This document shows, in pieces, positions 3,353 to 3,769 of a stretch of 4,197 nucleotides of DNA. The position numbers and the translations under genes were made by a program. How positions within the stretch are numbered: position 1 is the first letter of the stretch; the number at the start of each line of letters is the position of its first letter. The notes beneath the pieces were generated by a model, which saw only the letters and a program-made list of their open reading frames with translations, was not told the DNA's origin and did no database searches. This DNA is from a virus (lineage: Duplodnaviria; Heunggongvirae; Uroviricota; Caudoviricetes): the IMG/VR virus record IMGVR_UViG_2737471848_000018; one strand, 5' to 3'.

Positions 3353-3769
3353 ATGACAACTCAAATTTCTGTTGAAACTCTCTCCCCGATCACCCATAAC
3401 CGGATTCCTGTTATTACCACCGAACTTTTGGCGCAGCTTTACGGCACTGAGCCGGTGCGTATTCGCCAGAATCATCATGAGAACAAAGTACGCTTCGTTG
3501 AAGGGAAACACTTTTTCAAAGTTGTTGGTAATGACCTTAAAGAATTGCGGGTAGCTTTAAACTACTCACAAAATCCCATCTCTCCCAAAGCCCGCTCCCT
3601 TATCCTCTGGACAGAACGCGGAGCAGCCCGCCACGCAAAAATGCTCGAAACCGATCAGGCGTGGGATGTGTTCGAAAAACTGGAAGACTGCTATTTCAGT
3701 CAAAAGGATCCGTCAGCGCCAGTTGCATGCCAGAAAAGTTACGACACGCGAGTTCTCTGTTATCAGTGA
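3353..3769 (+). CDS. ORF6N / KilA-N-like domain protein (phage antirepressor-like DNA-binding family)
   Basis: 138-aa ORF with GAGGG at 3341-3345, 7 nt before ATG 3353. The pattern ELLAQLYGTEPVRIRQNHHENKVRFVEGKHFFKV ... SQNPISPKARSLILWTERGAARHAKMLETDQA matches my recollection of the ORF6N consensus (DLA.LYGV.TK.LNQAVKRN..RFPEDF.F.L ... SQ...RYLPYAFTEQGVAMLSS). First gene after pR'/tR'. Confidence 0.7.
   Translation: MTTQISVETLSPITHNRIPVITTELLAQLYGTEPVRIRQNHHENKVRFVEGKHFFKVVGNDLKELRVALNYSQNPISPKARSLILWTERGAARHAKMLETDQAWDVFEKLEDCYFSQKDPSAPVACQKSYDTRVLCYQ

Follow-up and report, generated by a model that had tools for sequence, protein, structure and literature searches.

The stretch of DNA analysed here (4,197 nucleotides, referred to below as the window) is a segment of a lambdoid prophage of Shiga-toxin-producing E. 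coli. From 3079 to 4197 it matches E. coli SJ7 at 100% identity and strains of O157:H7, O121:H19 and O45:H2 at 99.8-99.9%. The + strand carries, in order, hok/sok, a small ORF, a Doc/Fic toxin gene, a small hypothetical ORF, DUF1367, YbcO and a Q-like antiterminator gene of the DUF1133/AntQ type at 2528-3082. The last of these was recognised by Pfam (DUF1133, 1.2e-105; Phage_antitermQ, 5e-06) and by PHROG 753, 'anti-termination protein Q-like' (1.7e-79), and provides the context of the cassette described below without being part of it. Downstream of Q, also on the + strand, lie a promoter, two RNA genes, an interrupted ORF6N gene and the remnant of a tRNA, and a lysis cassette is seen 3' of the ORF6N gene in a genome record (L001) that is 100% identical. 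Searches of NCBIfam gave no model for the antirepressor and none for Q.

A sequence-only reading of the window had proposed that the ATG-started ORF at 3353-3769 (+ strand, 138 aa) encodes an ORF6N-like protein of the antirepressor kind. Both points were borne out by profile searches, in which residues 12-97 of the ORF matched Pfam ORF6N (PF10543; 72.8 bits against a cutoff of 27.8, E 2.9e-20) over positions 3-86 of the 86 in the profile, and the ORF matched PHROG 2379, 'anti-repressor', at 1.2e-73. The ORF is thus real, but it is not a complete gene. Its 138 residues are the first 138 of a 185-codon frame that is cut by an in-frame TGA at codon 139 (3767-3769) and then stays open for 46 further codons to a TAA at 3908-3910. 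On the basis of the translation, the ORF6N match, the intact homologs and the RefSeq annotation, we describe the region 3353-3910 (+ strand) as a TGA-interrupted antirepressor gene of the anrP type, made up of an N-terminal ORF6N domain and a C-terminal region of about 68 aa. The match to PHROG 2379 reflects this interruption, with the window ORF covering positions 1-139 of 187 and an intact homolog (P0001) covering 1-187; a full-length match of the AnrP type, including the C-terminal ~47 residues, was not obtained with the window ORF. An AlphaFold2 model of the same intact homolog, built from a 14-sequence alignment, had a mean pLDDT of 39 and was unusable.

The TGA at codon 139 costs the antirepressor its final 47 residues. 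When the stop was repaired to Arg, a search with the resulting 185-aa protein brought up intact homologs in the thousands from E. coli, Shigella, E. albertii and Salmonella, with lengths of 185, 193 or 203 aa. These have Arg or Gln (CGA or CAG) at codon 139, and their C-terminal 47 residues are almost invariant. Phage pPE4, which is collinear with the window through 4027, has CGA at this codon and a protein (gp31) of 193 aa, and in one further locus (L007) the allele is intact, with 99.5% identity to the window elsewhere. Among 31 loci with exact flanks codon 139 is CGA in 27 and TGA in four. A 61-nt segment is present in 128 complete E. coli genomes, 30 of which have the exact TGA version, an intact ORF6N protein being annotated in the remaining 98; strains of several serotypes share the TGA allele with an identity of at least 99.8%. 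RefSeq annotates the window copy as a pseudogene with its C-terminus missing. Because the stop removes the last 47 residues, this copy, the product of a CGA-to-TGA nonsense change, is probably a decaying pseudogene, and comparison with the intact homologs suggests that the truncated 138-aa protein would have lost its function. It could be argued that the 138-aa product still works as a short ORF6N protein, perhaps a dominant-negative antirepressor or one of altered specificity, since it retains the ORF6N domain in full along with the conserved residues as far as 138, since the allele occurs in about 30 complete genomes of several serotypes, and since the ORF6N N-terminal part, which is common to antirepressors with at least four different C-terminal parts, may act alone. 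Against this stand the near invariance of the lost residues, the origin of the stop in a single C-to-T transition with close intact alleles still in existence, the decay of the adjoining tRNA cluster (see below) and the RefSeq flag, and we regard a working short protein as unlikely. That the TGA might be read through or recoded to give the full-length 185-aa protein is scarcely credible. The codons 3' of the TGA are indeed 96-98% identical to those of intact alleles, but a recent mutation would leave the downstream frame open in any case, a recoding signal was not seen, and the TGA is confined to a minority lineage, all other alleles having Arg or Gln. Frameshifting was also considered, as the tail at first resembled another frame, and was ruled out; the tail is in the ORF's own frame.

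The region between Q and the ORF6N gene contains a promoter and two RNA genes. The promoter (3079-3108, + strand), which we take from the promoter scan, its conservation and its Gifsy-1 homolog to be the equivalent of PisrK, has a -35 element TTGACT (3079-3084) that overlaps the Q stop codon TGA (3080-3082), a spacer of 18 and a -10 element TATATT (3103-3108). With 10 of 12 consensus matches it is strongly sigma-70-like and is the sole site of this kind found on the + strand by a promoter scan of the window; it is kept with the cassette in VT2-Sakai, pPE4 and Salmonella. It is followed by the IsrK small RNA (3115-3191, + strand), identified by a full-length match to Rfam isrK at 77.5 bits (gathering score 50), by a terminator scan and by its predicted fold, and overlapped by a match to Rfam c4-a1b1 at 3102-3154 (50.1 bits, gathering score 46.7). 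IsrK is laid out as a first hairpin (3115-3134), a second hairpin whose loop holds a site termed b1 (ATTGGAAC, 3139-3146), a single-stranded spacer containing the site a1 (GAGACCG, 3155-3161) and an intrinsic terminator (3170-3191). The second RNA, supported by Rfam, fold and covariation, is a C4-type antisense RNA (3217-3300, + strand) in the position of STnc1160 in Salmonella, and matches Rfam C4 at full length with 71 bits (gathering score 45). It carries a' (CGGTTTC, 3259-3265) in a hairpin loop and b' (GTTCCAA, 3272-3278) in single-stranded sequence. The 5' leader of the ORF6N gene (3303-3345, + strand) contains b2 (ATTGGAAC, 3303-3310), a2 (GAAACC, 3331-3336) and the Shine-Dalgarno sequence AGAGGG (3340-3345), with a2 ending 3 nt upstream of the latter, and is considered the C4 target region from its complementarity to b' and a' and from covariation. 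The predicted folds leave the pairing sites unpaired, including both sites of C4. All three Rfam matches are above their gathering scores, in the expected order, on the + strand and directly 5' of the ORF6N gene. Neither RNA gene, IsrK or C4, nor the premature stop had been remarked upon in the sequence-only reading.

An upstream ORF of 36 codons (3221-3331, + strand), taken from the ORF list, overlaps the C4 gene and the leader and is in the position of the orf45 of Gifsy-1. Its ATGs at 3221 and 3233 are nucleotides 107 and 119 of IsrK if +1 is placed at 3115, and it ends 21 nt before the ATG of the ORF6N gene. It was tried as a conserved peptide gene and rejected, as both its length (between 14 and over 61 codons, depending on the locus) and its sequence vary with the RNA classes described below. 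Since the length of the ORF is not conserved, the conserved element is the RNA and not the peptide.

The relationship between these sites was examined in 23 distinct cassettes, obtained from 64 loci, which were aligned and from which the loop sequences were extracted for counts of exact complements. These counts replaced duplex energies calculated on hand-cut segments, in which the flanking stems dominated and cognate and non-cognate a sites were not separated. Five b classes were found (GGAAC, which is that of the window, AGGAAC, GGCGT, AGCAC and TGCAC), and b1, b' and b2 switch class in concert, to the point that a 1-nt insertion in one class recurs in each of them. Complementary runs between b' and b1 measure 7-8 nt for cognate pairs compared with a mean of 1.8 nt for non-cognate pairs, and the b1 of the window is a 7-nt perfect complement of b'. 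There are likewise five a classes, with joint change at a' and a2 and, more weakly, at a1; in the window a1 and a' form 7 bp with one G-U, the pure Watson-Crick run being 4 nt. The leader sites b2 and a2 are perfect complements of b' and a' and covary with C4 in 22 of the 23 cassettes. The one exception (L051) is mismatched at b2, and its downstream sequence differs there. Across cassettes the a classes and b classes are mixed and matched, and the same class goes with differing antirepressor payloads (185-, 187-, 221- and 244-aa types).

The position of the cassette was established by collecting about 130 relatives of the window Q and comparing the sequence 3' of each. The cassette is present in about 55 of these loci, in which Q matches over its full length and is at least 86% identical to that of the window, and is absent from about 75, in which Q is 51-91% identical. 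The cassette-free relatives come from Shigella, E. ruysiae, Citrobacter, Klebsiella, Enterobacter, Buttiauxella and other genera. Where Q is more than 80% identical, the sequence that follows its stop codon in the cassette-free loci (TTGAT...ACGCATAAACTGCTTCAAT...GCTTCGCAAAGCTGTATCGCGAGGCG...AACCCGCCATTGAGCGGGTTTT) is that found at 3911-4029 of the window, beyond the ORF6N gene; the more distant cassette-free relatives have a like layout with a different sequence. The same 3911-4029 unit is also found 3' of the ORF6N gene in pPE4 and Salmonella. From this conservation we infer that 3919-4029 (+ strand) is most likely the unit on which Q acts, that is, the late promoter and terminator (pR'-tR'), with a -35 element TTGCAT (3919-3924), a -10 element TTCAAT (3942-3947), an RNA of about 76 nt and a terminator at 4006-4029. 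The putative late promoter is weak, with 4+4 of 12 consensus matches, and its region (3919-3947) was not picked up by the promoter scan of the window. Because 3911-4029 directly follows Q in cassette-free relatives, the cassette is, as judged from this comparison, wedged between Q and the putative late promoter and inserted outside the late operon.

This arrangement bears on the earlier proposal that the ORF6N gene occupies the first late-gene slot after tR', with 3079-3108 acting as pR' and 3170-3191 as tR', so that the gene would head a Q-dependent late operon. Such a reading has in its favour a promoter right after Q followed by a short terminated RNA, as in lambda and Stx phages, and the location of the gene between Q and the lysis genes, which is indeed as had been claimed. 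The comparison of Q intervals, however, puts the putative late unit downstream of the gene, cassette-free relatives of Q having that other unit directly after Q. In addition, the promoter and RNA block (3079-3352) travels with ant genes to sites far from Q. In VT2-Sakai the cassette lies in the nin region, about 1.5 kb upstream of the VT2-Sakai Q gene, and this occurrence of the promoter-RNA-ant block far from Q argues that the cassette promoter is independent of the window Q. Finally, the Gifsy-1 promoter drives anrP without Q, and AnrP acts upstream of antQ (PMC4825925). We therefore consider a Q-dependent operon headed by the ORF6N gene to be improbable. The terminator at 3170-3191 is most likely that of IsrK, as the match to Rfam isrK indicates, rather than tR', and expression solely upon Q-mediated antitermination is probably not the case for a gene that has its own promoter and a Gifsy-1 homolog transcribed without Q. 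The idea of the gene as regulatory cargo survives in spirit, in that it is a counterpart of AnrP in a mobile cassette, but not as late cargo, given its place upstream of the putative late unit.

A tRNA-like gene had also been noted after the ORF. An element of this kind is present at 4069-4144 (+ strand, anticodon CAT) and matches Rfam tRNA at 37.3 bits, over model positions 7-64 only, but it is not a gene. ARAGORN found no tRNA in the window, and the acceptor strands (GGCCCTT and ACAACGC) form only 2 of 7 pairs, so that a complete cloverleaf is lacking; RefSeq annotates 4074-4144 as tRNA-Met. Comparison with the ileZ-argN-argO cluster of VT2-Sakai showed that the 5' part corresponds to ileZ, with a T-to-G change beside the anticodon, and that the sequence from the T loop onward is the 3' end of argO, followed by the sequence found downstream of argO. 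By this comparison the element is a deletion remnant, an ileZ/argO chimera. In Stx phages the interval from tR' to lysis carries cargo (ileZ-argN-argO and stx), and the window resembles these phages in having in that slot a remnant derived from that tRNA cluster; it differs from them in that its ORF6N gene is upstream of the putative pR'-tR' unit. The slot after the putative tR' holds the tRNA remnant and not the ORF6N gene.

The system to which the cassette belongs is already known, from the isrK/anrP locus of Gifsy-1, from the C4 RNAs of P1/P7 and from the Rfam families. The Gifsy-1 locus has the order antQ-isrK-orf45-anrP-isrJ (Hershko-Shalev et al., 2016; PMC4825925). In that work it was shown that the isrK promoter transcribes anrP without Q, via read-through of the IsrK terminator, that the long RNA is translationally silent, that anrP translation goes up more than 100-fold when IsrK is provided in trans, and that AnrP increases antQ operon RNA and induces the Gifsy-1 prophage (PMC4825925). 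The window shares with Gifsy-1 a DUF1133 Q-like gene, the promoter, IsrK, C4/STnc1160 with the upstream ORF, an ORF6N antirepressor gene and a short terminated RNA, and its IsrK fits, at full length, the Rfam model built from Gifsy-1 IsrK. The order DUF1367-YbcO-DUF1133-isrK-C4-ORF6N-lysis, strand included, is the same in the window and in five Salmonella loci (L033, L140, L142, L144 and L147), and the window Q-like gene is 72% identical to the DUF1133 gene 5' of isrK in the first of these. In Salmonella loci of the Gifsy-1 type, through which the Gifsy-1 of SL1344 is represented here, the RNA block is ~97-100% identical to that of the window, and the repaired window protein has 91% identity to P0023, a Salmonella protein present on over 1000 contigs whose gene stands in this same order, next to an RNA block nearly identical to that of the window. 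From the start of IsrK at 3115 to the end of the second terminator at 4029 the window measures about 915 nt, against ~910 nt for the isrK-orf45-anrP-isrJ transcript of Gifsy-1 (PMC4825925). The ATGs of the upstream ORF fall at the positions of the two start codons affected by the Gifsy-1 mutants A107C and UG120-121AA, and a processed STnc1160 species is known in Salmonella (PMC4825925). Close homology and identical gene order indicate that the window protein is probably the E. coli counterpart of AnrP; antirepressor activity as such has been established for Gifsy-1 AnrP only.

There are also differences from Gifsy-1. The antirepressor gene of the window has the premature TGA, and its upstream ORF has 36 codons compared with 45. 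The published model assigns a role to the translation of orf45 (PMC4825925), and translational coupling via the upstream ORF may differ from that model. The compensatory pairs reported for Gifsy-1, G28-C162 and G31-C159 (PMC4825925), would fit pairing of b1 with b' in the GGCGT class, as read from the numbering of the paper (from G28 and G31), while the window is of the GGAAC class. The downstream short RNA is not matched by Rfam isrJ. This model gave no match in the window, even with E values up to 10 on 3900-4197, and none in the six Salmonella loci scanned. The short RNA (3954-4029) would accordingly be placed in the IsrJ position by its location and transcript length only.

The immI region of phages P1 and P7, as described by Citron and Schuster in 1990, reportedly consists of a c4 antisense RNA followed by icd and ant. 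The cassette is reminiscent of this region in several respects: the C4 RNA is situated inside its own target transcript, the payload is an antirepressor, two short sites are repeated upstream (a1/b1) and downstream (a2/b2) with the latter adjoining the ribosome-binding site, and specificity shifts when every site changes to match, as it does between P1 and P7. In immI-type control C4 is freed from its precursor by RNase P, and the related observation is the processed STnc1160 species of Salmonella. In contrast to immI, the window has no icd, what lies between C4 and the antirepressor gene being just an upstream ORF that is not conserved. Its C4 is directed at the leader of that same antirepressor gene, the payload is an ORF6N protein where P1 has Ant, the upstream targets leave as a terminated small RNA of their own, IsrK, and the host element is a lambdoid prophage. 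A third comparison is offered by the Ant protein of Stx2 phages (VT2-Sakai and phi24B), which has been proposed to promote efficient prophage induction (PMC3064807). In these phages the promoter-IsrK-C4 block recurs, as does the protein up to residue 117, with 92% DNA identity to the window. Their Ant ends, however, in a P22AR_C domain that the window protein does not have, the homology with VT2-Sakai ant stopping at ~3705, and their cassettes are found in the nin region or elsewhere, not adjoining Q, and are of b class GGCGT.

Taken together, these data make it very probable that 3079-3910 is the E. coli version of the isrK-orf45-anrP cassette of Gifsy-1, RNA-gated in the manner of immI, decayed by a TGA and situated between Q and the putative late unit. 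The basis for this in the present analysis is given by sequence features, homology, covariation and position; promoter activity, activation by IsrK and the function of AnrP would carry over from the experiments in Gifsy-1. In an intact cassette, a constitutive promoter overlapping the Q stop codon would give rise to the 77-nt IsrK. Some transcripts would pass the IsrK terminator and so carry the C4-type antisense RNA and then the antirepressor gene. The a' and b' sites of C4 would pair with a2 and b2 of the leader and, given that a2 lies just upstream of the Shine-Dalgarno sequence, this pairing would keep the antirepressor gene untranslated. The pairing pattern is found in the sequences themselves; occlusion of the ribosome-binding site by C4 is what we infer from it. 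As IsrK bears the same target sequences as the leader, free IsrK could, through b1 and a1, compete with the leader for C4 or, inside the long transcript, for that same helix, and translation would then be switched on. The antirepressor would inactivate the prophage repressor, leading to induction, and would in this way act upstream of Q in the regulatory order.

Cassette-carrying E. coli genomes have a median of two places, and a maximum of 16, that match the cassette region. It is conceivable, though we think it unlikely, that the cassettes form a two-site RNA address code in which a copy with a dead antirepressor but apparently intact IsrK and C4 genes, such as that of the window, serves as an RNA-only regulator of cassettes of the same class in co-resident prophages. 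If this were true, the IsrK and C4 of the window would activate or silence cassettes of the same class, and would couple or uncouple the induction of prophages.

The ORF6N gene itself is an ordinary finding, a decayed version of an antirepressor on which work has been published, and not a new kind of cargo. The IsrK of the locus, by bearing the upstream a1 and b1 sites of the C4 system, joins the Salmonella model to that of P1/P7, and the natural variation among cassettes, with five classes per site, amounts to a ready set of compensatory mutants. For the Q family the lesson is that the promoter and terminator met first after Q are not necessarily pR' and tR', since an antirepressor cassette can intervene. 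The cassette insertion site and the table of matched classes should be useful for annotation and for the prophage biology of Shiga-toxin-producing E. coli.

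The antirepressor gene carried by the cassette varies in length between loci, with encoded proteins of 185, 193 and 203 aa and, in VT2-Sakai, 244 aa. The variants differ in how many times a linker repeat (LRVALNYSQN / LRVTLSNSQN / LQPSLRGLQ) occurs; it lies at 3545-3575 in the window and at approximately 5440-5530 in the VT2-Sakai locus (L002), the window's antirepressor being the shortest form. The small upstream ORF at the orf45 position is also variable. At two of the compared loci (L037 and L040) it continues in frame into the ORF6N gene without an intervening stop codon, and at a third (L114) it comprises 61 codons and overlaps the start of the ORF6N gene. 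The C4 sequence of the window's class also occurs, unchanged, 5' of antirepressor genes with other C-terminal parts (the 221-aa and 187-aa types; loci L151, L153, L156, L158, L159 and L171), and at the loci of the 221-aa type the sequence directly 3' of the promoter is not the same as hairpin 1 of the window's IsrK.

The host labels of two relatives appear doubtful. The record PP818812.1 (L003), named Actinobacillus phage vB_Apl-pPE4, shows 83-98% identity to the E. coli prophage region of the window, and the Q protein encoded on a contig binned as Candidatus Nanosynbacter (L119; JARKOR010000130.1) shares 90% identity with that of the window.

Upstream of the nin-like genes there are two toxin modules (1-240, 451-630 and 640-1134). 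The first consists of hok with a partial sok (Rfam sok, 40 bits), which runs off the edge of the window. The second contains a toxin of the Doc/Fic family with a 59-codon ORF on its 5' side; this ORF had no match in Pfam and could encode the antitoxin. An identical 20-nt terminator hairpin, CCCGCTTCGGCGGGTTTTTT, is present 3' of the hok gene and again 3' of the Doc/Fic toxin gene (311-330 and 1153-1172), and both copies gave weak, sub-threshold Rfam matches (isrK, rsmX and istR).

Comparison with L002 (8458-8709) identified the 'tRNA-Met' annotated by RefSeq at 4069-4144 as a chimeric remnant with the 5' part of ileZ and the 3' part of argO, apparently produced by a deletion between the T loops of these two genes in the ileZ-argN-argO cluster. 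Its acceptor stem is unpaired, and the anticodon is preceded by G where T is usual.

Between the cassette and this remnant, a short terminated RNA of approximately 76 nt is predicted (3954-4029), which matched no Rfam family. The prediction starts from the conserved promoter found 3' of Q in cassette-free relatives, and the first ~30 nt of the RNA (GCTTCGCAAAGCTGTATCGCGAGGCG) are kept in the closer Q relatives (Q >80% identical) and also in one more distant relative (L126). The position of this predicted RNA is that occupied by IsrJ in the Salmonella prophage Gifsy-1.
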